Below, piece after piece: positions 21,750 through 50,324 of a DNA stretch of 50,324 bases. The first letter of the stretch is position 1. The number at the start of each line of letters is the position of its first letter. A program made the translations under genes and the position numbers. The stretch is from a virus (lineage: Duplodnaviria; Heunggongvirae; Uroviricota; Caudoviricetes). A model generated the notes under the pieces. It did not search any database, had not been told where the DNA came from, and saw nothing but the letters and a program-made list of their open reading frames with translations. The stretch is taken from the IMG/VR virus record IMGVR_UViG_2681813429_000008, positions 1-50,324 of that record. One strand, 5' to 3'.

Positions 21750-21825
21750 TGGTGCTGGTTAACGGACTTGAACCGCTACCCATTCGCTTACAAGGCGACT
21801 GCTCTACCATTGGAGCTAAACCAGC
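21750..21825 (-). tRNA. tRNA with anticodon UGU (Thr-like)
   Basis: Hand-folded 76 nt cloverleaf: 7/7 bp acceptor stem (GCTGGTT/AACCAGC), D-arm GCTC/GAGC, anticodon loop CTTGTAA, T-arm with TTCAAGT loop, encoded 3' ACCA. Confidence 0.6.
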
Positions 21826-21830
21826 ATATT

Positions 21831-21905
21831 TGGCGGGACAGCGTGGACTCGAACCACGATAAGAAGGTTAACAGCCTTCCGTAATGACCTTTATACGACT
21901 GACCC
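21831..21905 (-). tRNA. tRNA-like sequence, anticodon GUU (Asn-like), degenerate
   Basis: 75 nt. Good anticodon arm (GAAGG-CTGTTAA-CCTTC) and T-arm (CGTGG-TTCGAGT-CCACG) and 3' GCCA, but acceptor stem has a T-T mismatch and D-stem only 3 bp. Confidence 0.4.
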
Positions 21906-29278: not shown

Positions 29279-29572
29279 TCAGAATTCCATCTGGATTTGT
29301 TCAGAACGCTCGGTTGCCGCCGGGCGTTTTTTATTGGTGAGAATCGAAGCAACTTGTCGTGCCAATCGAGCCATGTCGTCGTCAACGACACCCCATTCAA
29401 GAACAGCAAGCAGCATTGAGAACTTTGGAATCCAGTCCCTCTTCCACCTGCTGATCTGCGACTTATCAACTCCCACAGCTTCCGCTGTCTTCTCAGTTCC
29501 AAGCATTGCGATTTTGTTAAGCAACGCACTCTCGATTCTTAGAGCCTCGTTGCGTTTGTTTGCACGAACCAT
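29279..29572 (-). CDS. cII: Transcriptional activator cII
   Basis: 97 aa, near-identical to lambda CII as recalled ([51 protein letters not shown]...). Confidence 0.95.
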
Positions 29573-29630
29573 ATGTAAGTATTTCCTTAACTAATAAGGA
29601 GTTATGCGCATCAACTTATGCGCGTTGTAT

Positions 29631-29674
29631 TCCCGCATTTCGGCGGGAATGAGGACCATGACTGTTAAAGAGCG
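29631..29674 (-). promoter_or_regulatory. nutR (boxA CGCTCTTTA plus boxB hairpin)
   Basis: On the minus strand: CGCTCTTTA, then 17 nt, then hairpin CCCGCCGAAATGCGGG, between cro and cII. The identical boxB occurs downstream of PL. Confidence 0.65.
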
Positions 29675-29680
29675 GTGTTA

Positions 29681-29881
29681 CTATTTGTTTTTCTTGTTGC
29701 TTGGGAAAGGACGAACTTCCTCTCCAATCACACTGCCATCAGGCTTTACCGTAACCATAATGTTACGGCCTGCCAGAATGGCCTTGCTGATAGCGCACTG
29801 GATTACACCAAAGTCACTGGCTGCTTTAGCCTGTCCATGGATTTTGGCGTAATCGGCAAGTGTCATTCGAATCATATGCAC
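29681..29881 (-). CDS. cro: Cro repressor
   Basis: Resembles lambda Cro ([53 protein letters not shown]). True start probably 2-5 codons inside the ORF. Confidence 0.9.
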
Positions 29882-29906
29882 TCTCCGTTATTAACCATGA
29901 ATAAAG

Positions 29907-29970
29907 AATACTACAGGTATTCAAAGCAATCAATACTCAGGGTATTTTTAGTTTAAGTACCTTAGCTATT
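29907..29970. promoter_or_regulatory. OR operator region: three 15-bp sites AATAC-N5-GTATT (PR/PRM)
   Basis: Sites at ~29907-29921 (AATACTACAGGTATT), ~29932-29946 (AATACTCAGGGTATT) and a degenerate third ~29956-29970, spaced 24-25 bp, between divergent cro and cI. Confidence 0.65.
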
Positions 29971-29981
29971 AGAATTAAGCT

Positions 29982-30698
29982 ATGGAAAATAAAAAATCAC
30001 TGACGACAGAACAGCTCGAAGACGCTAAGCGGCTTAAGGCTTTGTATGAGTCAAAAAAGAAAGAATTGGGAATAACCCAATACTCAATCGCTGATGAACT
30101 GGGTATCACCCAAGGAGCGGTAGGGCATTATCTTAATGGCAGAAACGCGCTAAACGTTGAGGTCGCATCTGGTTTTGCACGTTTGTTGCAAGTCTCAATT
30201 GCTGATTTTAGCCAGTCAATTGCTGCCAAGGTTGCAGAACAGGCAGAAAGCCTTAAGAGCGATGCCAACGTAAGGTATGCAGGGGAATACAGAGCAGGAA
30301 AGAGGTATCCGGTGTTAAGCAGTATCCAGGCTGGTTCGTGGTGTGAAGCATGCGAACCATACACCATTAAAGACATAGATGTTTGGCTTGAGTCTGACGC
30401 GCATATTCAAGGTAATGCGTTCTGGCTTAAAGTGGAAGGTGATTCAATGACGGCACCGGTTGGGTTAAGTATTCCAGAGGGAACATTCGTTCTTTTCGAT
30501 ACCGGAAGGGAGGCGATCAACGGCAGCTTGGTCATAGCAAAACTTTCTGACTCTAACGAAGCAACATTCAAGAAGCTGATAATCGACGGCGGAAATAAAT
30601 ACCTCAAGGGACTTAATCCTGCATGGCCTCTCGTGCCAATCAATGGAAACTGCAAGATTATAGGCGTTGCAATTGAGACAAAACTCAGACTGGTTTGA
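29982..30698 (+). CDS. CI-type repressor (HTH plus S24 LexA-like peptidase domain)
   Basis: 238 aa. N-terminal HTH (LGITQYSIADELGITQGAVGHYLNG), Ala-Gly cleavage site, catalytic Ser (GDSM) and Lys in the C-terminal domain. Confidence 0.9.
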   Translation: MENKKSLTTEQLEDAKRLKALYESKKKELGITQYSIADELGITQGAVGHYLNGRNALNVEVASGFARLLQVSIADFSQSIAAKVAEQAESLKSDANVRYAGEYRAGKRYPVLSSIQAGSWCEACEPYTIKDIDVWLESDAHIQGNAFWLKVEGDSMTAPVGLSIPEGTFVLFDTGREAINGSLVIAKLSDSNEATFKKLIIDGGNKYLKGLNPAWPLVPINGNCKIIGVAIETKLRLV

Positions 30699-30716
30699 TC
30701 ACGCAAGGGGGCGCTT

Positions 30717-31085
30717 ATGGTTGGAACCGCTATAGCAAGCTTTTTGGGGATGTTGGCAATCTCAACAATTTACGGCTTAGCGCATGCTTTTATTGCGAAA
30801 TCTCTATCAGAAAAAATAAGCCAGGCTTGGGCGCATAGATCAGCTCGTTTCATGATTCTAGTGATCATAGCAATACAAGGGATATCTGCATTTATCCTCT
30901 ATGGATCAAGCTTATACCTATTGTATCAAGGCGCGACATTTACGCCTTACACCAGTGATTACGGAACTCTATACGATGGTAGTGAAGACATCTCTATGGC
31001 TTGGATCGTCTTTGGTTTATCTATGGCCGTGTCTGTTGTAGCAGACATCATTAAGGTAATTCTCGTCTTAACCTTCGCTGACTAA
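30717..31085 (+). CDS. Small multi-pass membrane protein downstream of cI (RexB/SieB-like position)
   Basis: 122 aa with 3-4 predicted hydrophobic helices, 19 nt after the cI stop, so probably co-transcribed from PRM. Confidence 0.6.
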   Translation: MVGTAIASFLGMLAISTIYGLAHAFIAKSLSEKISQAWAHRSARFMILVIIAIQGISAFILYGSSLYLLYQGATFTPYTSDYGTLYDGSEDISMAWIVFGLSMAVSVVADIIKVILVLTFAD

Positions 31086-31172
31086 CCCATAATCCCGGCA
31101 GCAATAGCTATCGGGATCCACTTCACATATCCCGCATAAAAAGCACTGAACAAGCAGACACCGAAAAAAATA

Positions 31173-31257
31173 AATATCCTTTGTATTCATTTGTTTATCA
31201 TTATTTCATCAAAAATAAATACCTTGGGTATTTACACAATAAAATACCTACAGTATT
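31173..31257. promoter_or_regulatory. OL operator region: three AATAC-N5-GTATT-type sites (PL)
   Basis: Sites at ~31173-31187 (AATATCCTTTGTATT), ~31218-31232 (AATACCTTGGGTATT) and ~31243-31257 (AATACCTACAGTATT). Same consensus as OR. Confidence 0.6.
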
Positions 31258-31304
31258 CTTTAGCCATCAGCAGGACGCTGGAAGTCAAACGGAAAAGATT
31301 GGCA

Positions 31305-31345
31305 GGCTCTTTAACATTGATGGGATTGTCCCGCCGAAATGCGGG
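31305..31345 (+). promoter_or_regulatory. nutL (boxA-like GGCTCTTTAA plus boxB hairpin)
   Basis: boxB CCCGCCGAAATGCGGG identical to the nutR boxB, with the same 17-nt boxA-boxB spacing, upstream of N. Confidence 0.65.
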
Positions 31346-31660
31346 AACCAAAGAGTAGTTGGCTTTGGGGTGACGTGAAGTGCAGCTGCACGACGGCAAC
31401 CGGAAGATAAGCACCCGGCGCGTCACCGCCAAAGTCAATTCCATAGGCGTTATGCAGCCGCCACCATATTCAAGAAAGCTGCACAAGAGGTAGGAGGATT
31501 TATGTGAATACTTACATTCAATTGAGAGATTAATTAAATAGAACTGATCGAGCAGAGTCCATAAAGGCTCATAAATGCTCTTCCATCCCCGTCTAATTGG
31601 CGGGGAAGGAAACCACTTTGTAATAAAAAAAATTCCAAAGTTGTTTCATCGGAGGTCAAC

Positions 31661-31960
31661 ATGACAGTAGTCATTACATATCTGGCTGACGATAACGCCA
31701 GAAATCGCCGCAGAGCACGCAGACAGGCTCAACGTGAACAGGCAATGCAAGAACAGCGACTGGCGCGAAAAATTGCGCTAAAGCTCTCTGGTTGCGTCAG
31801 AGCAGATAAAGCAGCATCACTCGGAAGCCTTCGCTGTAAGAAAGCAGAAGAAGTCGAGAGTAAACAGAATCGTATTTACTACCGCAAGCCACGCAGTGAA
31901 ATGGGTGTGACTTGTGTTGGTCGCCAGAAAATGAAATTAGGCAGCAAACCACTTATTTGA
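31661..31960 (+). CDS. N: Antiterminator N (P22 gp24-like)
   Basis: 99 aa. N-terminus MTVVITYLADDNARNRRRARRQAQREQ has an arginine-rich motif and resembles P22 gp24. First gene after nutL. Confidence 0.8.
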   Translation: MTVVITYLADDNARNRRRARRQAQREQAMQEQRLARKIALKLSGCVRADKAASLGSLRCKKAEEVESKQNRIYYRKPRSEMGVTCVGRQKMKLGSKPLI

Positions 31961-39790: not shown

Positions 39791-39950
39791 TGAACACTTC
39801 TCACTAAGTTCAATTAATTCCATAACTCACTGTTTTAACTGATATCATCTCCTTATACTCGTCCAGCAAAGTACCATTATTTCTAATGGAATCTATACAT
39901 CTTTGCGTATAACATTGTGTATAACTGAGTTCGATCTTTTTTCTATACAC

Positions 39951-41126
39951 ATGCTGCTATCTGACATCCAAATAAAAAGAGCAAAACCGAAGGACAAACC
40001 CTATACGCTTAACGATGGTATGGGGCTATCACTCCTGATCGACACAGCGGGCAGTAAAGGCTGGCGTTTTCGCTATCGCTTTGCAGGTAAGCCTAAGATG
40101 ATTTCCTTTGGCGTATATGGCGATGTGTCGTTGGCACAGGCACGTACCAAACGTGATGAAGCGCGTTCGATGTTAGCCAACGGGATAAACCCAAGTGAAG
40201 CCAGAAAAGCAGATAAGATTGCTTTGCAGTTCGCGCATGAGAACAGCTTTGAGTCTGTGGCCAGAGAATGGCACTCATCGAAAAAAGCCACCTGGTCAGA
40301 GGGTTATGCAAAAGAGGTTCTCAATTGTATGGAAAAGGATATTTTTCCTTTTATCGGCCAGCGCCCAATTGAGCAGATTGAACCATTAGAACTGCTAACC
40401 GTCCTGCAAAAAATAGAGAAAAGAGGTGCGCTAGAGCAAACCAGTAAGATCCGCCGCCGCTGTGGTGAAGTGCTTCGTTATGCTGTTGCCACTGGTAGAG
40501 CAAAGTATAATTTTGCACCCGATTTAGCTATCGCACTCAACAAACCTAAAACCCAACACTTCCCGTTCCTGACTGAAAGCGAGTTGCCCGAGTTCGTTAA
40601 TGCTCTGGATAACTATCAGGGCAGTTTAGTTACCAAATACGCCACGCAGCTGTTGATGCTAACAGGCGTGCGAACAATTGAACTACGTGCAGCGGAATGG
40701 GCTGAGTTTGATTTAGATAATGCCTTATGGGAGATCCCCAAAGAACGGATGAAGAAACGCCGCCCCCATCTGGTTCCGTTATCAACTCAGGCGATCAATA
40801 TCCTGAAAAAGCTGCAAGAAATAACAGGGAATTACAGCCTCGTTTTCCCTGGCCGGAATGACGTCAGTAAACCAATGAGCGAAGCCAGCATCAACAAAGT
40901 GATAAAACTACTGGGTTATCACGGTCGGTTAACGGGTCACGGTTTCAGGCATACCATGAGCACCATCTTGCATGAGCATGGGTTTGAAAGTGCCTGGATT
41001 GAAATGCAGCTTGCGCATGTTGATAAGAACTCTATTCGAGGTACTTACAATCATGCGCAATATATTAAAGATCGACAAGTAATGATGGAATGGTACGCTA
41101 GCTTATTAAATACGACCTGCTATTAA
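39951..41126 (+). CDS. int: Tyrosine integrase, P4 family (second copy)
   Basis: Start chosen at ATG MLLSDIQIKRAKPKDKPYTLNDG. Shares the RRCGEV.RYA..TGRAKYN.APDLA and HGFRHT motifs with the first integrase. Confidence 0.9.
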   Translation: MLLSDIQIKRAKPKDKPYTLNDGMGLSLLIDTAGSKGWRFRYRFAGKPKMISFGVYGDVSLAQARTKRDEARSMLANGINPSEARKADKIALQFAHENSFESVAREWHSSKKATWSEGYAKEVLNCMEKDIFPFIGQRPIEQIEPLELLTVLQKIEKRGALEQTSKIRRRCGEVLRYAVATGRAKYNFAPDLAIALNKPKTQHFPFLTESELPEFVNALDNYQGSLVTKYATQLLMLTGVRTIELRAAEWAEFDLDNALWEIPKERMKKRRPHLVPLSTQAINILKKLQEITGNYSLVFPGRNDVSKPMSEASINKVIKLLGYHGRLTGHGFRHTMSTILHEHGFESAWIEMQLAHVDKNSIRGTYNHAQYIKDRQVMMEWYASLLNTTCY

Positions 41127-42056
41127 ATCCAGCATGAAACAAATATGGTGAGTAATTTGATACTGTTTGTTTTTTGGCAACCCAGGGAAATGCCTTACAG
41201 TTGGTTGACTATTGTAATAATAATAGTTAAGACCAATGTTGCTGCCAAACTGGGTTGGATGTTGGGGAACAAGATTTGTAATTTGATCTGAAACATCTAA
41301 AAATTTTGCAGTAACATTTGAACTTCCTCGTTGCGTGTTGCTTGATACAAAATGACGAATCCAAACTGTATTCGCTTGTAAATTCTTGAACACCAAATGT
41401 GCGGCAACAGCAGAAGGTTGACCACCTCCAAGATCTAGTACCTGGCCAGTAATTGTATAATCGCCAAATCCTAAGTAATTTTGTCCCACGAATTGATGTG
41501 CGTGCGTGAAAAGTTCCGGCCCATTATAATCAGCATTTTTTGCTAACTTTCTAAAGTTATCGCTAATAATAATTAACTTCGACAAAGGAAGAAGAGCGCA
41601 CTGATTAGGAAGCATTTTATTATTTAAAACAACATGATAACTAATCAATTGATTTGTCGCCAACAACTGAATATCAGAGTTGGATAATGATGGATTATCA
41701 TATAGAAGTGCAACTCGTCTATTTAAGTTAGCATTCAACCAATTATTAATATCATTAATCGTTGTATTGGGCTGAATAAGATATCCAGAGATGATATTAT
41801 TTTTATTTGTTAATACACTTGATAAATTTTGATTTAAAGTTAAGACGTTATTGTGTGAAGAAAAATCTTCCTGATAAGGATTAAGGATAACAATTATGTC
41901 AGAATTCCAAACATTTAAACATGTTAATAAATTTCTCGTATTGACGTTAATTGGTTCTAAAATTGGTAGCAGACCATTTAGGCTAACTCCCTTCGCAACG
42001 AGGTCCCTAAGGCATAATAACTCTGTACTTCTCGCATACAAATATGGGCTATACAT
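41106..42056 (-). CDS. Hypothetical protein, AT-rich cargo gene B (downstream gene of a two-gene cassette)
   Basis: 316 aa, Asn/Leu-rich, coding GC far below the surrounding DNA. Its 3' end overlaps the integrase 3' end by ~21 nt. No recognised domain. Confidence 0.6.
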   Translation of the reverse strand: MYSPYLYARSTELLCLRDLVAKGVSLNGLLPILEPINVNTRNLLTCLNVWNSDIIVILNPYQEDFSSHNNVLTLNQNLSSVLTNKNNIISGYLIQPNTTINDINNWLNANLNRRVALLYDNPSLSNSDIQLLATNQLISYHVVLNNKMLPNQCALLPLSKLIIISDNFRKLAKNADYNGPELFTHAHQFVGQNYLGFGDYTITGQVLDLGGGQPSAVAAHLVFKNLQANTVWIRHFVSSNTQRGSSNVTAKFLDVSDQITNLVPQHPTQFGSNIGLNYYYYNSQPTVRHFPGLPKNKQYQITHHICFMLDLIAGRI

Positions 42057-42077
42057 AACTTACAACTCCTGAGGATA

Positions 42078-42959
42078 TCAACAAATTTTAATTTTTACAT
42101 CCATCAAATTCATGATGAATTCTTTTTGCTTTCTTGATAATGGTGTTGCATAACCTAAAACACGTAAACATGCTGGAAGAGAATAAATATAATCCAAAAA
42201 AACTTTATCGTTACATCTTTTTTTCATAGCAGAGATAAAGTATTTATTTGCTATGTTTAATGGCATCTGCATGAATATCTCTTTACAATATTCATAAACC
42301 AATCCGTTAGGCATATTTATTTTAGTTGAAGTGTAATCTTCTATTATAGCTAAGAACTCTTCCTTTCTAAGAACTGAAAACAAGCTGTCACTTTTAATAT
42401 AATCAATATTTGAATCTGCCTCCTTAATGACACTCAATTGATCTTTTTTATTCAAAACCATAACTCCCACTCTGGGGAGATTTAAAGCACAATATTTACT
42501 TGCATACTCTGGATGTGTAACTATATACACTTTATCAAAAACATCCAAATAATCAGGGGCTTGAGTAATCAACCTTTTTGGTGAATCATACTCTGTCTTA
42601 ATCTCGTAAGCTGTAGACGTACCATTAAACACCGCAACATCCACTATAGAGTTTTTAATTGGTAACTCTATGGACGACGAACTTGTTTTTGGGCTGTGCT
42701 TACCGAATATTATTTTATTGACAAGTGCTGTCTTATAAACATATTCATTTCTATAATTCAGACGCAAAAAATCATATAATGATGTAAATAAATCCCTTAG
42801 TGAAATCTCATGTTCATTATTATCATTGTTTGAAAACAGTGTTTCATAGCAGTAAGAATCAAAACTCCCAAATAAATCCGAAATATCCTTACCTTTTGCT
42901 AAGGATGAAAAAATGGGGCGACGGAAAAATTTAGCATATTCCTTTTTATTATGACTCAT
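42078..42959 (-). CDS. Hypothetical protein, AT-rich cargo gene A; possible PD-(D/E)xK nuclease-like motif
   Basis: 293 aa. Motif IVDVAVFNGTSTAYEIKTEYD has the hydrophobic-D ... E-x-K spacing of restriction-endonuclease-like folds. 21 nt upstream of gene B. Confidence 0.6.
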   Translation of the reverse strand: MSHNKKEYAKFFRRPIFSSLAKGKDISDLFGSFDSYCYETLFSNNDNNEHEISLRDLFTSLYDFLRLNYRNEYVYKTALVNKIIFGKHSPKTSSSSIELPIKNSIVDVAVFNGTSTAYEIKTEYDSPKRLITQAPDYLDVFDKVYIVTHPEYASKYCALNLPRVGVMVLNKKDQLSVIKEADSNIDYIKSDSLFSVLRKEEFLAIIEDYTSTKINMPNGLVYEYCKEIFMQMPLNIANKYFISAMKKRCNDKVFLDYIYSLPACLRVLGYATPLSRKQKEFIMNLMDVKIKIC

Positions 42960-43638
42960 TACTCATACTCTATAAACATCATGCAATTTGATAAGTTATG
43001 ACGAATTCTCACCATCCAGTTACTACCTGTACATACTAATCAAAAAAAACGAGTACGCAAGATACGAAAGTACTTTTCTTGTTCACCAGTTAGCTTACCT
43101 TGATCCTCACCAGCGACTGGAAGATAGGTAGCAGTATATGTGGAAACCTTCCCCTAGCTAGGTCTACAAACGTAGTTTGGGCATTTAGGCTCCACGATTC
43201 ACGGTTTGACACGGCCTGATATCTGCACATTCGTTTTGATATGCAGCAATCGTGAAAAAGGAAAATATACGCTCGACAGACCAAAACGGCACTACACCGC
43301 ACCCGCCTGCGGTTTTCATATCACTAAAAATTTTCAGCCTGGATTTTTTACAAACGATACCGCCAGTCCGTGCCAGTCCTCGAGATGTACTGCGATACAG
43401 GAACTGAAAAGAATGAAAAGAAATTCATTTTTTTTCAGTTTTACTGTCCGTCGAATCTATGGCCTGAATACGCAACTCTATGATATTAAATGGATAATTA
43501 ATTTTAGGTGTGTGATTTTATGAAGGTTTGTGAAACATGAAGAAGATAACCAGTTGAAAAATAATAATTTTATGACCGTATAAACTGAAATCCTGTGTTC
43601 AGGTTCCGGGAACAGATCGGCCATTCCCGACGCATACT

Positions 43639-43911
43639 TTACCCATTCTTTTGCGCAGCCAGCAGCAACTTTAAAGCCTTTTCCCGTTCCTCGGGTGGAA
43701 TTGCATCAATCAGCTCTTTAACCCTTCCCTGCCCGTTCAGCGCGCTTGGACTAACGGAATGGGAGAAAGCAACATTCATCACAAACGAGTGACCGCACTC
43801 CACATTAGAGCAATAGCAGTACACATCGTACAGTTGTGGGTGTTTCCTGTTTGTTTTACCTATCCGTGCTACTGCCTGACATGTGGGGCAGTACATTCTC
43901 ATCATCTTCAT
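43639..43911 (-). CDS. ogr: Ogr/Delta-family zinc-finger late-gene activator
   Basis: 90 aa with CPTC...C.C...C.H zinc-finger pattern (MRMYCPTCQAVARIGKTNRKHPQLYDVYCYCSNVECGHSF) characteristic of P2 Ogr / P4 Delta. Confidence 0.85.
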   Translation of the reverse strand: MKMMRMYCPTCQAVARIGKTNRKHPQLYDVYCYCSNVECGHSFVMNVAFSHSVSPSALNGQGRVKELIDAIPPEEREKALKLLLAAQKNG

Positions 43912-43979
43912 CGTTCTGTGCCCTATACTGTTGCCCGCCAGAAGAAGGGATTTGGATCCCTACCTCTTGTTCTGAACGT

Positions 43980-44170
43980 GTAACACTGGTAACACGTGTA
44001 ACGCTATTGATTTAAAAGGATTTAATCTGTTACCAGTTAGCAAAATCAAGAGGTAACGCGTGGTAACACACCATTTTTTGTTACCTCTGTTACCAGTCAG
44101 TATTTTTGACTGGTAACACTGAAGAACCGCATCAGTAACGGGTGTTACCTCTGTTACCAGTGTTACCTCA
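43980..44170. repeat. Iteron array (GGTAACAC / GTGTTACC heptamer-octamers, about 12 copies): putative satellite origin
   Basis: Repeated GGTAAC(A/G)C and complementary GTTACC motifs in both orientations between ogr and the primase gene. Resembles the P4 ori/crr octamer TGTTCACC as recalled. Confidence 0.7.
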
Positions 44171-44193
44171 TAAAAATAAGACTCACGCGATAA

Positions 44194-46881
44194 TCACTCA
44201 GGTTCAGCGCTTCCCAGTACCTGTGTATTGAACTGGTACACACGTTTAAGCCCTATTTCTGGCAGGCGAATGCTGTTTTGCGTCCGGCCATCTTCACCGG
44301 GTTTCAGCCAGCCCGCGTCCACACACAACCTGGCCACCTTACGCGAGTCAAATCCCTTACAGATCTCCTTCCAGCCTGACGGGAGAACGTAGAACGTCAC
44401 AACCGGCTCTGTCACGTTGTCTCCTTTATCGACTTTTCTGAATCCCATCATTGAAACAGGCCGGTTCCTGTCGTCATTCCAGTCAGCAAACCGACTGAAC
44501 TGATTACGCGTCATGAAGTCCCGAACCTGTTCAAGTGCCGCTTTATCTTCCTGATTAGCTGTATGGCCCCGGTCAGCCATCCATGCAGCCAGACAGCTTT
44601 GAGCGGCACGAAAGGCCTCTCCCTCCGGCCATCCTGTGATGCCCGCTTTTGTGGCCAGCTCCCCGGCCATCGCAACCAGAGCAAAACGGGTAACAGCCCG
44701 GCCAACCTGATTCCCGGCATTTTCCGGCGTCAGCCTTCGGGTATACTCTTTCAATAAGGCTTTCGCCTGACTGGTCAGTTCCGGCAGATCAGCGGTCAGG
44801 CAATACAGCCAGTCGCGGAATGGTGCACCATGATAATGCGCTACGTGCTGCTCAAGATGCTCAGCCAGGGTTTTCCCGCTACTGAAGCCATGAAGTTCTT
44901 CAAACACGCCATACTTGCCCGAATCGCTTGGGATCTGGATCATTCTGACCTCAACCCCGGCATACGTACGTTCCCCGGCGCTTGCCGCATGCTCTACCAG
45001 TGACAGTTCCCCGGTAGACAGAAACAACAGATTCCAGCGGTTGGTTTCCCTTACCGAACCATCTGTTCTGGCTCTGGCTTTGCCCTGCCCGTTAGCCAGC
45101 ATATAAGCGATATTTCCCGCCTCCCTGCCGTCAACCTCCCGGATTTCATCCAGCATCAGCGTGGCATCATTGCGGCGGCTCGCCGTTCCTTCTAAGGCAT
45201 TCCCCGTCGCCCGCCACGTATGCCAGAAATCTGTTCCACCACATACTGATGCAGCCACTTTCATCGTCGTGGTTTTACCGTCTGTGGATTCCCCTTTGAG
45301 GTGATAACCTCCACCGCCGATACCAACCAGTTTCAGAAGGGGGGCAGCAAATGCCAGACTCACCGCAAAGGCAAGACGGGCATTCTTTATGCAATAACGG
45401 CCTATATTTTCACGCCAGCCCTCTGATGTGCCGCTGACACGAAAATCACGCCCCTGCACACTCGATGTTTGTAAGATGACTGACTGGGCTTCGCGCCCTA
45501 TCACTTCATCCTGGAGAACGTAAACCCCGCCGTGCCAGCCAGTTTTATTCACACAGGTTACTTTTCTGTCCGGTTTACACAGCGAGATATATTCCATCAG
45601 GAATGCTCTGGCCATGCCGTTAATGTTGATGTAAGAAAGCCCGTTAACCAGCAGAACGCGGCGCAGTTCTTCCCCGCTACCGCCCAGCATCTCCATCGGC
45701 ATTGCCCATTTACGGCTGTTTCCGTTGGTATCTTCCCATTCCAGCAAACGCCCGTAATTACTTCCATCAGCATCACTGGTGATTGCCGTCACCCGCAACG
45801 GACTGCAAATTTTGATATTACGTATCTCTGTATCACCATCAGACTTATTAACCAGCTTGTCGTACCACAAATATTCTTTTGTCAGCCGGAACCCTTCTGG
45901 TAAACGGGTCTGCCCTTTGCCATGCAGCGTCATTTCTTCACGAAAGGCATCTCTCGCCCGTTCTTTCCCCACTTCCTGCCGATAATCATCCCAGTCAGCC
46001 TTATGGCGTACCGGAGGGAGCGTTACCCAGCCATCCACCGCTTTGGCGGCTTTCTCTGCCTGAATACGCCCGGTGTTTTCTTTGCCGTCAGCCAGATCAT
46101 TATCTCCGGCCAGAATGATCCGGGTTTCCGGCCAGCGTTTTCGGATCTGCTCCGTCACCTTCAGTAAATTGGTGGCAGCGACAGCCGCCACGATCCATCC
46201 TTCAGTCAGCAGACTGACGGTAAGCGCCGTGGCAAAACCCTCAGTGATAATCACCTGTTCAGGTGTTTCAGCGGGTATATCGGTCAGGGCAATGAATGCG
46301 CCAGACAGCTGGCTACCGGGCAGCAGACTTTTATCCCCGTCAGGATTGATAAGCTGGCCACCAGTAATATTCCCGGAAATATCCGTCAAAGGCAGCAGTA
46401 ATGAACCGGTGGAAAATGTTATTCCGGCCAGATTCAAAGGCTGTGACAGCAAGGGAAGTGAATACCCGTGTAAGCTCTTATTTGTCAGATAGACCGGCTC
46501 ACCATTGCAGGACTGCTGTCTGAGTCTGGTATATCGCTCCGCGCCCGCTTCTTTTCCTGCGGCCTTTTTCCTGGCTGGCAATGCGGGCTTCTCCTGTATT
46601 TCTGGTAATGCAAGCGCCTCAGATACCATCCCGGCGACTTCTTTTATCTTTCTTCCTGTCACCAGACGAACCAGATCAAGACCATCGCCATGACCGCACT
46701 GATTACAAAACCACGTCCCTCGCCCCGCTTTATCGTCCAGTCGAAAACGATCTTTTCCACCACAGGCAGGGCAAGCCCCATGATGTCCTGCGGACGGTAC
46801 TTTAATACCTAATGCTGACAGGATATAAGGCCAGCGCCCAATTGCAGCTCCGGAAATCGTGGATACAGACGGTGTTTTCAC
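44194..46881 (-). CDS. P4 alpha-type primase-helicase
   Basis: 895 aa. N-terminal zinc-binding primase region (CPACGG...CNQCGHGDGLDLV), central Toprim-like region, C-terminal P-loop NTPase (KGESTDGKTT). Confidence 0.85.
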   Translation of the reverse strand: MKTPSVSTISGAAIGRWPYILSALGIKVPSAGHHGACPACGGKDRFRLDDKAGRGTWFCNQCGHGDGLDLVRLVTGRKIKEVAGMVSEALALPEIQEKPALPARKKAAGKEAGAERYTRLRQQSCNGEPVYLTNKSLHGYSLPLLSQPLNLAGITFSTGSLLLPLTDISGNITGGQLINPDGDKSLLPGSQLSGAFIALTDIPAETPEQVIITEGFATALTVSLLTEGWIVAAVAATNLLKVTEQIRKRWPETRIILAGDNDLADGKENTGRIQAEKAAKAVDGWVTLPPVRHKADWDDYRQEVGKERARDAFREEMTLHGKGQTRLPEGFRLTKEYLWYDKLVNKSDGDTEIRNIKICSPLRVTAITSDADGSNYGRLLEWEDTNGNSRKWAMPMEMLGGSGEELRRVLLVNGLSYININGMARAFLMEYISLCKPDRKVTCVNKTGWHGGVYVLQDEVIGREAQSVILQTSSVQGRDFRVSGTSEGWRENIGRYCIKNARLAFAVSLAFAAPLLKLVGIGGGGYHLKGESTDGKTTTMKVAASVCGGTDFWHTWRATGNALEGTASRRNDATLMLDEIREVDGREAGNIAYMLANGQGKARARTDGSVRETNRWNLLFLSTGELSLVEHAASAGERTYAGVEVRMIQIPSDSGKYGVFEELHGFSSGKTLAEHLEQHVAHYHGAPFRDWLYCLTADLPELTSQAKALLKEYTRRLTPENAGNQVGRAVTRFALVAMAGELATKAGITGWPEGEAFRAAQSCLAAWMADRGHTANQEDKAALEQVRDFMTRNQFSRFADWNDDRNRPVSMMGFRKVDKGDNVTEPVVTFYVLPSGWKEICKGFDSRKVARLCVDAGWLKPGEDGRTQNSIRLPEIGLKRVYQFNTQVLGSAEPE

Positions 46882-47288
46882 AGCAGCACCTCCTGACCTT
46901 CCGGCTTCACAAATTCAAAACCTTCGGGTAGTTCGCCATCAGGTGCTCCGAAAATAATATCCCGGTAAACCTCACGCATCTCTGTGACACCAAAAACTGA
47001 CAGGCGAATATTTTCTGACATAAAGCCTGGTTTAAGCATTTTTTCCAGTTTCTCTGCGGCCAGTATGCAACCAGCATCAGCCCCAAACTCATTCACCCAC
47101 GGCATTTCAATATGGTAAATAATATTACTCACCACTTTTTCGTGGGAGAGTTCTATTCGTTCGCCATCTTCAATATAAACAGGTTCATTATGAACACGCA
47201 CCATTAAGGAAATGAATGCATCAGCAATGTAGTAGCGTAAGACTGCTGTTCGTAAAGCATGCGCCTTTAAATTTTGATTATTATTCAT
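46878..47288 (-). CDS. Hypothetical satellite protein
   Basis: 136 aa ORF overlapping the primase start by 4 nt. Confidence 0.5.
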   Translation of the reverse strand: MNNNQNLKAHALRTAVLRYYIADAFISLMVRVHNEPVYIEDGERIELSHEKVVSNIIYHIEMPWVNEFGADAGCILAAEKLEKMLKPGFMSENIRLSVFGVTEMREVYRDIIFGAPDGELPEGFEFVKPEGQEVLL

Positions 47289-47517
47289 CGCGCATCACTC
47301 CCTTAATTGTGCTGGTTTCCTTAACAACGCCATCCAGTTGTTCGGCAATACAGGCCACTAAAGCCGCAGCGCCTTCCGCTGAAACAGTTCTCGCTCCATT
47401 CACTGTGGGCACGGACAAGACCTCTGCAAGAAACTCACTGGCCAGTGCCGCCCGTAACAGACGACTCTCCCCCTGTTCACTCAATATGCAGCCTTGCTTA
47501 AAATTCATGGATTTCAT
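47281..47517 (-). CDS. Hypothetical satellite protein
   Basis: 78 aa ORF, translationally coupled to its neighbours. Confidence 0.45.
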   Translation of the reverse strand: MKSMNFKQGCILSEQGESRLLRAALASEFLAEVLSVPTVNGARTVSAEGAAALVACIAEQLDGVVKETSTIKGVMRDE

Positions 47518-47717
47518 GCAACCACCTCCCCGGCTCTTTTCACAGGGATACGGGCAGCAAAGCTCAGGATAAATTCAGTGGCAAGTTTAAGGCGTGCAGC
47601 ATGCTCGCATTCTGCGATTACACGCACAGGGCGTGGACGGGCATCACGGTCTGTACGGCGGACAGCCAGAAAGACAAAGGTAAATTCAGGGTGAGATAAA
47701 GCAGGGACTGTAGCCAT
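47514..47717 (-). CDS. Hypothetical small protein
   Basis: Only the last 67 codons of the 196-codon track ORF look genuine: internal ATG (MATVPALSHPEF...) preceded by AAGGAGG at ideal spacing. Confidence 0.45.
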   Translation of the reverse strand: MATVPALSHPEFTFVFLAVRRTDRDARPRPVRVIAECEHAARLKLATEFILSFAARIPVKRAGEVVA

Positions 47718-48149
47718 AATGGCAACCTCCTTCAGATAGCGGGTAACGCTACCACCGGAGTTCCTACGCTCATGGGTGGTAGCCCAGACGGGGGTAGGAA
47801 TACCGGCTCTGAAGGATACCGGCCAGCCCGAAAGCTGCCCCGCCTGGACTACCATAATTCTGATGATGTGGCGTAAAAAATAAAAAAATACAATCAGCCA
47901 CCACACCATAAATTTTAGGTGAGTCAAAGCTGCGACACAAAAAAACACGCCTAGCGCGTGTAGTATCGCCTTCAGATAACACGGGTTCCTACGCCCGGCT
48001 GCCGATTTTGCGGCAACCTTTAAACTATATCCCGCGCATTCCTGGTGAGGCAAGAAATTTATAACCGAAAACTGATCATTGCCTGGATTAATTAACGCTG
48101 GCATGCTTAAGCCTCTGCTTAAAAATAGTTCTTCATTTTTCCTGATGCT

Positions 48150-48182
48150 GTAAACGAGACCCGCCTCTGAGCGGGTCTTTCT
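48150..48182. terminator. Intrinsic terminator (GACCCGC-TCTGA-GCGGGTC)
   Basis: Perfect 7-bp stem with T-rich flank, immediately downstream of the capsid-homolog gene stop. Confidence 0.55.
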
Positions 48183-48191
48183 GTCGCTAAG

Positions 48192-49196
48192 TCAATCCGC
48201 AAACGTCAGGGTGCACTCATCAACAGCCGCGTACAGTTCAGGTTCACCGAGTGCATAACCTTCATTGCGCAGGTAGGAATGCACGTATTCACTGCTTTCA
48301 TCATCAAACTCAGCACGAAACCAGCGTGTTATCGCCTGAGTGTAAATATGCAGATTATCCAGCGTCGTTACTGCCAGACGCTTACCCGGCATAAACGGGG
48401 GAATAAACGCAAAGCGGCCAGCAACAGAACTTGTAGCCATCTGTGCCGCATTCACATCAGACGGGCGGTCTGCGGCATTAAATAACTTCAGGCGTTGATG
48501 TGCTGCCAGCTCTGCCCCAACCAGTACAACCAGACGAGGATCTTCACGAAACTGCTCAGCAATAAGCTCTGTAATCAGATGGTTGGCCAGAGCATCAATA
48601 TTTTTCCAGGTGCCAGTCTCTCCCAGAGTGACAGGCTCAGAGATGATTTGCTTTCCGTTCCCGTAGGCTTTCGCCAGTGCATGCCAGCCAATATTGACAT
48701 CCTCGCCTTTTTTATTGATTTCCGGGTTTGTAGTATTTGCAATCGACACACCGTTGAAACCGACCCGCAGCATGTCCAGCGCATATGCCTGGGCAAAAAA
48801 GCTCTCAACCGTTTTCTCAAACTCATCCGGCACGCCGGTATGGTAAATATGAGACATATCGGAATAGCTGATCCGGGCGCAGGTATCCGTCTCTGTCAGA
48901 AAGAACTCCGTACCATTGATTGCCATTTTTTTGTGGAAACGGCCACCATCCACACGTCCGGTATACAGTTCACTGGCACCAATATTGACGGCATTACCTG
49001 ACACGGCGTTAACATCACGTAGGGTAATATTTTTAATAAGCCACCCGGATTCCAGAATTGAGGTACGCAGTATATTTTCAGTAGGTTCGCTTAATGCAAA
49101 GCGTCTGTTTGATTCTTCCTGATAGTTAGTGCCAGTGACGAATTTATTATGATAACGACGTGCTGCGTCCGGCCTTTCAGTTTTGAAGGCATACAT
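48192..49196 (-). CDS. P2 GpN-family major capsid protein homolog
   Basis: 334 aa, colinear with P2 GpN as recalled (e.g. LRVGFNGV..., EDPRLVVLVGAELAA..., LDNLHIY...). No database search was run. Confidence 0.6.
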   Translation of the reverse strand: MYAFKTERPDAARRYHNKFVTGTNYQEESNRRFALSEPTENILRTSILESGWLIKNITLRDVNAVSGNAVNIGASELYTGRVDGGRFHKKMAINGTEFFLTETDTCARISYSDMSHIYHTGVPDEFEKTVESFFAQAYALDMLRVGFNGVSIANTTNPEINKKGEDVNIGWHALAKAYGNGKQIISEPVTLGETGTWKNIDALANHLITELIAEQFREDPRLVVLVGAELAAHQRLKLFNAADRPSDVNAAQMATSSVAGRFAFIPPFMPGKRLAVTTLDNLHIYTQAITRWFRAEFDDESSEYVHSYLRNEGYALGEPELYAAVDECTLTFAD

Positions 49197-49218
49197 AGTT
49201 TTTCACCTTTTTAAGTAT

Positions 49219-50079
49219 TTAAGAAAAGATTTTATTTTTGTACTCAGTAACCAGATTGTATTTCATTACATGCTCAACATAATCCCGGTCACTTACGACT
49301 GAACGTAATACATAATTATCTGCTCGATAGTACTCCCTGTAAGCCATAGCTCTTGCCATTCCACCGTTATTTAATACATAACGATCAGTTGGAACGCTAC
49401 AACGACTAATAATTTCACTCACGGAATCAGATAAAGACTTGAGTGCATCAGTAATAAATTTAATATCACGGACAACGTCACTGTCATTAAATACAGAAAT
49501 AAAATCAGCAGGGATCTGGCCGGATTGAGGAAATATATTCAGTAAACGCTTATCGATTCCCTTCCCAATGTAGTTTCCTTCATCGGCCAGTACTCCCGGC
49601 AAAAGCTTGATCGTGCTCAATCGACTATGTTGTTCATTCAACCGGGAAACAGCCAGATGGTAATACCGTTCAGCATCCGCTCGTTCAGCATGCCCCATTT
49701 TATTCGTTTTGGCTTCAGCAATGCTACTGACGCCGTTTTTTGAGAATGTGCTTTTCCATGCAACTTCCGCATTTGTCACTTCACGCTGCCGGAAAGATAA
49801 CTCTTCCTCTTCCTGACGACACAACTGGGCATAACGGCTCAGGAGCAGGTTGATCTCATTCGCCACAGTTTCCGTATCAGGTACTGTTAACCCCGTAAGT
49901 GAATACAGCTTTTCACCTTTAGCTCGCAGCTTATTCAGTGAATATATTTCAATAATACGCACAATACAGGCCGTGTCGCTATGAGTCTCTTTAAATGATC
50001 TTACTTTGTAACTATCTAACACCGACACATGTTCGTTCTTAATTGATGCCAATTTCTTCTTAAAAACATTGTCAACCAT
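49219..50079 (-). CDS. Hypothetical protein upstream of the capsid homolog
   Basis: 286 aa, moderately AT-rich. Size matches P2 GpO but no sequence similarity was recognised. Confidence 0.5.
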   Translation of the reverse strand: MVDNVFKKKLASIKNEHVSVLDSYKVRSFKETHSDTACIVRIIEIYSLNKLRAKGEKLYSLTGLTVPDTETVANEINLLLSRYAQLCRQEEEELSFRQREVTNAEVAWKSTFSKNGVSSIAEAKTNKMGHAERADAERYYHLAVSRLNEQHSRLSTIKLLPGVLADEGNYIGKGIDKRLLNIFPQSGQIPADFISVFNDSDVVRDIKFITDALKSLSDSVSEIISRCSVPTDRYVLNNGGMARAMAYREYYRADNYVLRSVVSDRDYVEHVMKYNLVTEYKNKIFS

Positions 50080-50096
50080 ATATTTGCCACCTCAAT

Positions 50097-50324
50097 TTAG
50101 GAGTTTAATTTTCTATTGAGAATATTCTTCTCTATCCATTCATTAACTTCATGCTCCACCCATGCAACAGAACGAGAACCGATAGAAACTTGGTTCGGAA
50201 ATTCATCATTCTTTATCTTTAGATAAATTGTTGACTTGGGTAAGCCAGTCAAATTAATCACTTCTGATATTCTCAGAAGTCTATATCTTTTTTGGGGTGC
50301 GTTTTCCCGAGGCAATAAGCTCAT
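50097..50324 (-). CDS. alpA: AlpA-family transcriptional regulator
   Basis: 75 aa; YRLLRISEVINLTGLPKSTIYLKIKNDEFP...VAWVEHEVNEWI is the canonical AlpA winged helix. ORF starts at the window edge, so the true start may lie beyond. Confidence 0.8.
   Translation of the reverse strand: MSLLPRENAPQKRYRLLRISEVINLTGLPKSTIYLKIKNDEFPNQVSIGSRSVAWVEHEVNEWIEKNILNRKLNS

Follow-up and report, generated by a model that had tools for sequence, protein, structure and literature searches.

Dyad-symmetric sites occupy the gap between the divergent genes cro and cI and recur over pL, ahead of nutL and N. Judged from their sequence, positions and relatives, they are in all likelihood the cI/Cro operators of a bistable switch like that of lambda, with immunity of the HK620 type. 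The DNA analysed (the window, 50,324 bp in full) represents a P22-like prophage: its tailspike carries the P22 head-binding domain, and it also encodes a P22 portal and, at 39903–41126, an integrase. The original prediction had described triplicated sites at both OR and OL, and both triplets are real, but only two sites in each are exact. The operator set is not new: since the HK620 immunity region with the same operators is already annotated, the finding is an ordinary one.

When positions 29600–31700 of the window were used as a megablast query, the immunity region matched that of HK620 with 98.7% nucleotide identity (over cro-cI-hkaS-OL-nutL), those of mEpX2, HK630, HF4s and phi296/phi367 with about 99%, and that of HK140 with 95.8% over full length; the same region is also found in some Stx2c phages and in 146 of 5,426 complete E. 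coli genomes. Coliphage HK620 was reportedly described by Clark, Inwood, Cloutier and Dhillon (J Mol Biol 2001), and its operators have been in GenBank since the 2001 record. The features of that entry (AF335538) comprise OR1–3, OL1–3, pR, pL, nutL, nutR and tIMM. OR1, OR2, OR3, OL1 and OL2 of the window are base-for-base the same as in HK620, and pR, pL and nutL coincide. The cI protein is 99.6–100% identical to those of the HK620 group (99.6% to HK620 cI itself), and its recognition helix region, which the original prediction had proposed to compare with known immunity groups, is identical to that of HK620 cI; that is, both repressor and operators are essentially HK620's. Within the group, substitutions fall nearly all outside the half-sites, the exceptions being one relative with a change in OL1 (L049) and one with a change in OR3 (L050). 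The claim that the sites define the immunity specificity of this phage amounts in practice to its carrying the HK620 immunity region, which had been described already. A search of the accessible literature found no published binding experiments for HK620-type cI/Cro operators.

The 100-bp gap 29882–29981 separates minus-strand cro (29681–29875) from plus-strand cI (29982–30698). Its organisation is that of a lambda-type immunity region: divergent cI and cro, a short (~100 bp) control region and, in OR, three ~17-bp dyads 23–25 bp apart. HK620 has its annotated cro start at the ATG corresponding to 29875, but an in-frame GTG further upstream, at 29881, could also serve. The three dyads proposed to lie 24–25 bp apart in this gap are indeed there, with centres at 29914, 29939 and 29963 and hence centre distances of 25 and 24 bp; they had been described as 15-bp sites, and while the dyad was confirmed, the natural operator unit is the 17-mer nAATAC-N5-GTATTn rather than the 15-mer. 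OR1 (GAATACTACAGGTATTC, 29906–29922) and OR2 (CAATACTCAGGGTATTT, 29931–29947) carry the exact motif and equal the annotated HK620 OR1 and OR2, the latter being kept in relatives. OR3 (AAGTACCTTAGCTATTA, 29955–29971), equal to HK620 OR3, is weak and asymmetric, with two mismatches to the motif in its core 15-mer (AGTACCTTAGCTATT, 29956–29970). Measured from the cI ATG, the centres of OR3, OR2 and OR1 lie at 19, 43 and 68 bp, as compared to 19, 42 and 66 bp in lambda.

The overlaps with the predicted promoters are also lambda-like. pR (29905–29933, minus strand) coincides with HK620 pR and consists of a −35 hexamer TTGATT (29933–29928), a 17-bp spacer and a −10 hexamer TATTCT (29910–29905); OR1 overlaps the −10, and the TT of the −35 comes from the cro-distal edge of OR2. 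With 8 of 12 consensus positions, pR is under the threshold of the promoter scan and was read directly from the sequence; its transcript is predicted to start near 29898. On the plus strand, a putative pRM-like promoter (29947–29975), not annotated in HK620, has a −10 hexamer TAGAAT (29970–29975) that directly follows OR3, overlapping its edge, and ends 6 nt before the cI ATG (29982). Its −35, TTTAGT (29947–29952), is weak; a poor −35 is expected of an activated promoter. The operator-overlapping hexamers at pR and pRM are conserved, though they are consensus matches only. Before the cI ATG no Shine-Dalgarno sequence is present, and therefore a leaderless cI transcript, as from lambda pRM, is predicted, its first nucleotide being the A of the ATG (29982) or an immediate neighbour.

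The second operator cluster lies over pL. OL2 (AAATACCTTGGGTATTT, 31217–31233) and OL1 (AAATACCTACAGTATTC, 31242–31258) both carry the exact motif, equal the annotated HK620 OL2 and OL1, and overlap the −35 and the −10 of pL, respectively. pL itself (31231–31259, plus strand; TTTACA, 17-bp spacer, TATTCT) scored 9 of 12 in the promoter scan and coincides with HK620 pL; transcription from it is predicted to begin near 31266. As in lambda, nutL and N follow downstream: nutL (31305–31346, plus strand; HK620 annotation transferred by alignment) has a boxA-like element, GCTCTTTAACA (31306–31316), and a boxB hairpin CCCGC-CGAAAT-GCGGG (31330–31345) that is present in the minimum-free-energy fold, and the N antiterminator gene (31661–31960, plus strand) belongs to PHROG 271 (E 1e-36), has a weak Pfam N_peptide match and is annotated as N in HK620 and HK140. 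Some 210 bp that separate nutL from the start of N (about 31440–31650) are present here, diverged in HK140 and absent in HK620. Of the three OL sites predicted upstream of nutL and N, OL1 and OL2 are 25 bp apart (24 bp in lambda), but the spacing is uneven: the third site, with one mismatch, lies an atypical 45 bp from OL2, compared to 20 bp in lambda.

Between cI and OL, unlike in lambda, a gene annotated as hkaS in HK620 (30717–31085, plus strand; PHROG 6534) takes the place of rexAB and is co-oriented with cI. Directly past its stop codon there is a stable hairpin, AUCCCGG...CGGGAU (31092–31117), and the 85-nt stretch containing it folds at −15.3 kcal/mol (z = −2.8); lacking a U-run, the hairpin does not qualify as a canonical intrinsic terminator, and scanning the plus strand from hkaS to pL turned up no terminator either.

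Across the 50,324-bp window, exact AATAC-N5-GTATT occurs four times (at 29907, 29932, 31218 and 31243), twice in the cro–cI gap and twice ahead of nutL and N, always inside the two control regions. The expectation is 0.02 copies, and none of 100 dinucleotide-preserving shuffles contained four or more. The whole-window motif scan that had been suggested as a check of uniqueness therefore returned no exact copy outside OR and OL. Allowing up to one mismatch gave 7 matches in the whole window against 1.25 expected, the added ones being 31173 (AATATCCTTTGTATT, the third OL site of the original prediction) and the isolated 41358 and 46063. These last two were dropped as operators: they are single sites outside the prophage early region and within the chance expectation of 1.25. 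We also scored all 50,308 17-mers with a half-site weight matrix trained solely on the four exact sites, which ranked the distal OL3 (31172–31188) 7th and OR3 8th, slightly below the unrelated 46062 and 26838. Because these two unrelated sites score higher, OR3 and the distal OL3 convince through position and conservation and not through score; uniqueness, which was to be checked for all six sites, holds for the exact ones, but OR3 and OL3 are no better than the best chance matches elsewhere in the window.

The third OL site is where we depart from the HK620 record, reading OL3 at 31172–31188 and not at the annotated OL3. This distal dyad, AAATATCCTTTGTATTC, has one mismatch, its 17-mer is unchanged in HK140, and in HK620 it lies inside the feature labelled 'tIMM'. 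The equivalent of the GenBank OL3, TTATCATTATTTCATCA (31195–31211), mismatches at 8 of 10 half-site positions, ranks 21,677th of 50,308 in the matrix scan and differs in HK140 by two substitutions and one deletion; it is not supported. From this comparison, the OL3 and tIMM features of HK620 in GenBank probably need correction, with OL3 placed at 31172–31188. An IHF-like site within the GenBank 'OL3' 17-mer, WATCAANNNNTTR, was considered and set aside, having two mismatches by eye and being unconserved in the other relatives of the 45-bp class.

Third OL sites were surveyed in 17 representative diverged lineages, counting a site at up to two mismatches and giving its offset relative to OL1. 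The site lies at −70 (45 bp from OL2) in 8 lineages, at −46 (21 bp from OL2) in 6 and at −55 (30 bp from OL2) in 2; at up to two mismatches, none was found in 2 lineages (L068 and L095). The −70 site is exact in a Kluyvera lineage (L107), which has an additional weak two-mismatch site at −55. The background is 4e-4 per position at up to two mismatches, and 0 of 91,201 positions matched at up to one mismatch. No lineage combines a −70 with a −46 site.

A competing account, which we consider unlikely but which has to be taken seriously, holds that the dyad at 31172–31188 is not an operator: OL would have two functional operators, or a third at the GenBank position 31195–31211, and the dyad would belong to the end of the immunity transcript ('tIMM') or to a conserved A-rich element upstream of pL. 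The HK620 record favours it by putting tIMM over 31172–31188 and by spacing OL3 in the manner of lambda, at 22 bp from OL2; yet the RNA of 31163–31212 folds at only −2 kcal/mol (z = −0.04), equal to shuffles, on which grounds we rejected the terminator reading, and the GenBank OL3 has the mismatches, rank and HK140 mutations described above. An A-rich block, AAAAATAAAT (31163–31176), 75–85 bp upstream of OL1, is kept in nearly all relatives (L065–L140 equivalents), and it is conserved in all third-site classes, that is, even where the third site is elsewhere; by analogy with lambda pL, a distal UP-element role was considered for the block as a candidate. Since the block overlaps the left half of the −70 site, part of the conservation of that site may have another cause. 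Several 45-bp-class relatives match at only 8 of 10 positions, and the two lineages without any third site point the same way. Set against this are the recurrence of the site at exactly −70 in 8 lineages, far above the per-position background, its exact form in the Kluyvera lineage, and the mutual exclusion of the −70 and −46 classes, as expected if one third site is kept per lineage.

A joint reading, which as a whole is somewhat less likely than not, would have the HK620-type OL3 mis-annotated and the distal dyad as the functional site, third sites in the family at offsets of 21, 30 or 45 bp, and the operator/helix pair unchanged down to 43% cI identity. Cooperative or looped use of the distal OL3 is uncertain because its 45-bp distance differs from the 20 bp of lambda and is a non-integral number of helical turns. 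If the distal OL3 is real, any long-range OL3–OR3 loop would have a register unlike lambda's, whose OL3 contributes to the repression of pRM from a distance; the three discrete third-site offsets, if true, might be what is left of an ancestral OL with four sites. The suggested correction of OL3 and tIMM concerns a reference record, from which later annotations may have inherited these features.

Both proteins are homologous to those of lambda. cI (Pfam HTH_3 and Peptidase_S24, E 5e-24) is a full-length homologue of lambda cI, with 43% identity and a match to the intact lambda repressor 3bdn (E 2.9e-52, residues 3–232). Its QAG (residues 116–118, with Ala117-Gly118), Ser155 and Lys197 align with lambda Ala111-Gly112, Ser149 and Lys192, and so by alignment the C-terminal domain is of the LexA-like self-cleaving kind, with an Ala-Gly site and a Ser/Lys dyad. 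The recognition helix reads T-Q-G-A-V-G-H-Y-L-N-G-R; in the alignment cI keeps the equivalents of lambda Gln33, Gln44, Asn52, Asn55 and Lys4, and its recognition residues differ from lambda's by Ser45Gly, Gly46Ala, Ala49His and Ile54Arg. Cro (Pfam Cro PF09048, E 3.6e-26; PDB 1cop, E 4.7e-19) is 63% identical to lambda Cro. Within its recognition helix Q-C-A-I-S-K-A-I-L, the segment Q-C-A-I-S-K aligns to lambda Q27–K32, keeping Gln27, Ala29 and Lys32 and changing Ser28Cys and Asn31Ser.

The half-site nAATAC shares positions 2, 5 and 6 (A, A and C) with lambda TATCAC and differs at positions 3–4, and the residues changed in cI and Cro are probably those that read base pairs 3–4 in the lambda co-crystals. 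The Cro 'evolutionary code' is said to come from studies by Hall et al. (2005, 2011) in the Cordes laboratory. In this code Gln at H1 pairs with A+2, Ala at H3 with A+5 and Lys at H6 with C+6 (PMC6649833, Cordes laboratory). The Cro of the window and its half-site n-A-A-T-A-C satisfy all three pairings (A+2, A+5 and C+6), an agreement that may not be independent if HK620 Cro was among the sequences from which the code was derived.

To follow the operator beyond the HK620 group, we drew on viral and genome collections for 160 loci with a gene for a cI relative. Those with the helix (T/S)QGAVGHY carry the exact motif upstream of cI, at ~75 and/or ~50 bp, with a single exception, a Tatumella locus (L086) whose three OR sites have one mismatch each. 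Where the flank permits, same-helix relatives also have a second pair of sites 0.8–3 kb downstream, spaced 24–25 bp and including one or two exact copies. These cI relatives go down to 43% identity and span more than 12 genera (Lelliottia, Siccibacter, Enterobacter, Lonsdalea, Tatumella, Serratia, Pantoea, Providencia, Proteus, Yersinia, Pectobacterium, Scandinavium, Kluyvera and Microbulbifer). By contrast, among ~50 relatives with a different N-terminal domain, which share the C-terminal domain alone, no exact motif was found except for a single isolated copy at +1364 in one locus (L118). When 20 diverged intergenic regions are compared, each half-site position of OR1 is conserved in 19–20 of them, while spacer and flanks vary; most relatives have a site 23–24 bp from OR2, in the place of OR3, with a right half GTATT conserved in 18–20 of 20 and a degenerate left half; and TAnnAT directly follows the OR3 half-site, 6–7 nt before the ATG, in all 20.

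This survey bears on which proteins would use the sites. It is improbable, in our view, that a different regulator (a host factor, or one phage protein only) binds them in place of both cI and Cro. Three Microbulbifer relatives (L141, L143 and L144) do lend this some weight: they combine the cI helix ITQGAVGHYLN and AATAC-N5-GTATT at OR and OL with a cro-position gene of another HTH family, whose helix ITQGMVSAW resembles that of cI, and the operator therefore appears to track cI more strictly than Cro. Yet in all Enterobacterales relatives where it is readable the cro-position gene is of lambda type, with a helix Q-(C/T/M)-A-I-S-(K/Q), and the code positions fit the half-site; moreover, the layout of the sites is that of lambda, where cI and Cro use the same sites. 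That the dyads are chance occurrences or by-products of A+T-rich promoters and bind no protein is scarcely credible: although the regions are A+T-rich and the half-sites overlap the TATTCT, TTGATT and TTTACA hexamers, no shuffle reached four exact copies, each genome keeps the same 10 bases at five or six sites, in genera whose promoter spacers and flanks diverge, and the motif vanishes where the cI DNA-binding domain has been replaced.

Taking the sites as cI/Cro operators, the switch would work much as follows, with binding, cooperativity, activation, looping and induction all being what we infer from the sequence. Dimers of cI and of Cro would bind the 17-bp dyads. At OR1 and OR2, 25 bp apart, cI would cover the −10 and −35 of pR and turn off cro and the early-right operon; at OL1 and OL2 it would turn off pL, and with it N and the early-left operon. 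From OR2, whose centre is 43 bp ahead of its own start codon, cI would activate the weak pRM-like promoter. Cro or excess cI would shut pRM through the weaker operators, namely OR3 and, probably, the distal OL3. RecA-stimulated self-cleavage of cI at Ala117-Gly118 would then lead to prophage induction.

Beyond the immunity region, the cII gene (29279–29572) is of lambda type (Pfam Phage_CII, E 1.7e-48), whereas those of HK620 (195–473 of its locus, L001) and HK140 are P22 C1-like, and this difference in cII type places a mosaic junction just downstream of cro/nutR. The prophage also contains tRNA-Thr(TGT) and tRNA-Asn(GTT) within 21750–21905. Two tyrosine integrases (1–1158 and 39903–41126), 46% identical and of the same domain architecture, flank it; the first ends beside the tailspike end of the prophage, which suggests that elements integrated in tandem, and the two junctions next to the integrases share no att repeat of at least 12 bp. 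Past the prophage integrase on the right, 41106–50324 belongs to a different mobile element, as seen especially in 44194–46881 and 47772–48017: it encodes a primase-helicase of DUF927/Toprim/zinc-ribbon type, and Rfam models for C4 antisense RNA (47772–47859, 81 bits) and isrK (47940–48017, 69 bits) match there, which points to an RNA-based immunity system of P4/P1 type beside the protein-repressor one.

That a P22-like E. coli prophage has the immunity type of HK620 matters little beyond annotation in itself. It does make the exclusion of phages by repressor immunity predictable, and the prophage should be SOS-inducible. The ~20 diverged operator/repressor/Cro triplets would provide a natural data set for lambda-type recognition at half-site positions 3–4. 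Finally, an operator/helix pair that stays unchanged from Enterobacterales to Microbulbifer would be unexpected if immunity specificity were under constant diversifying pressure.
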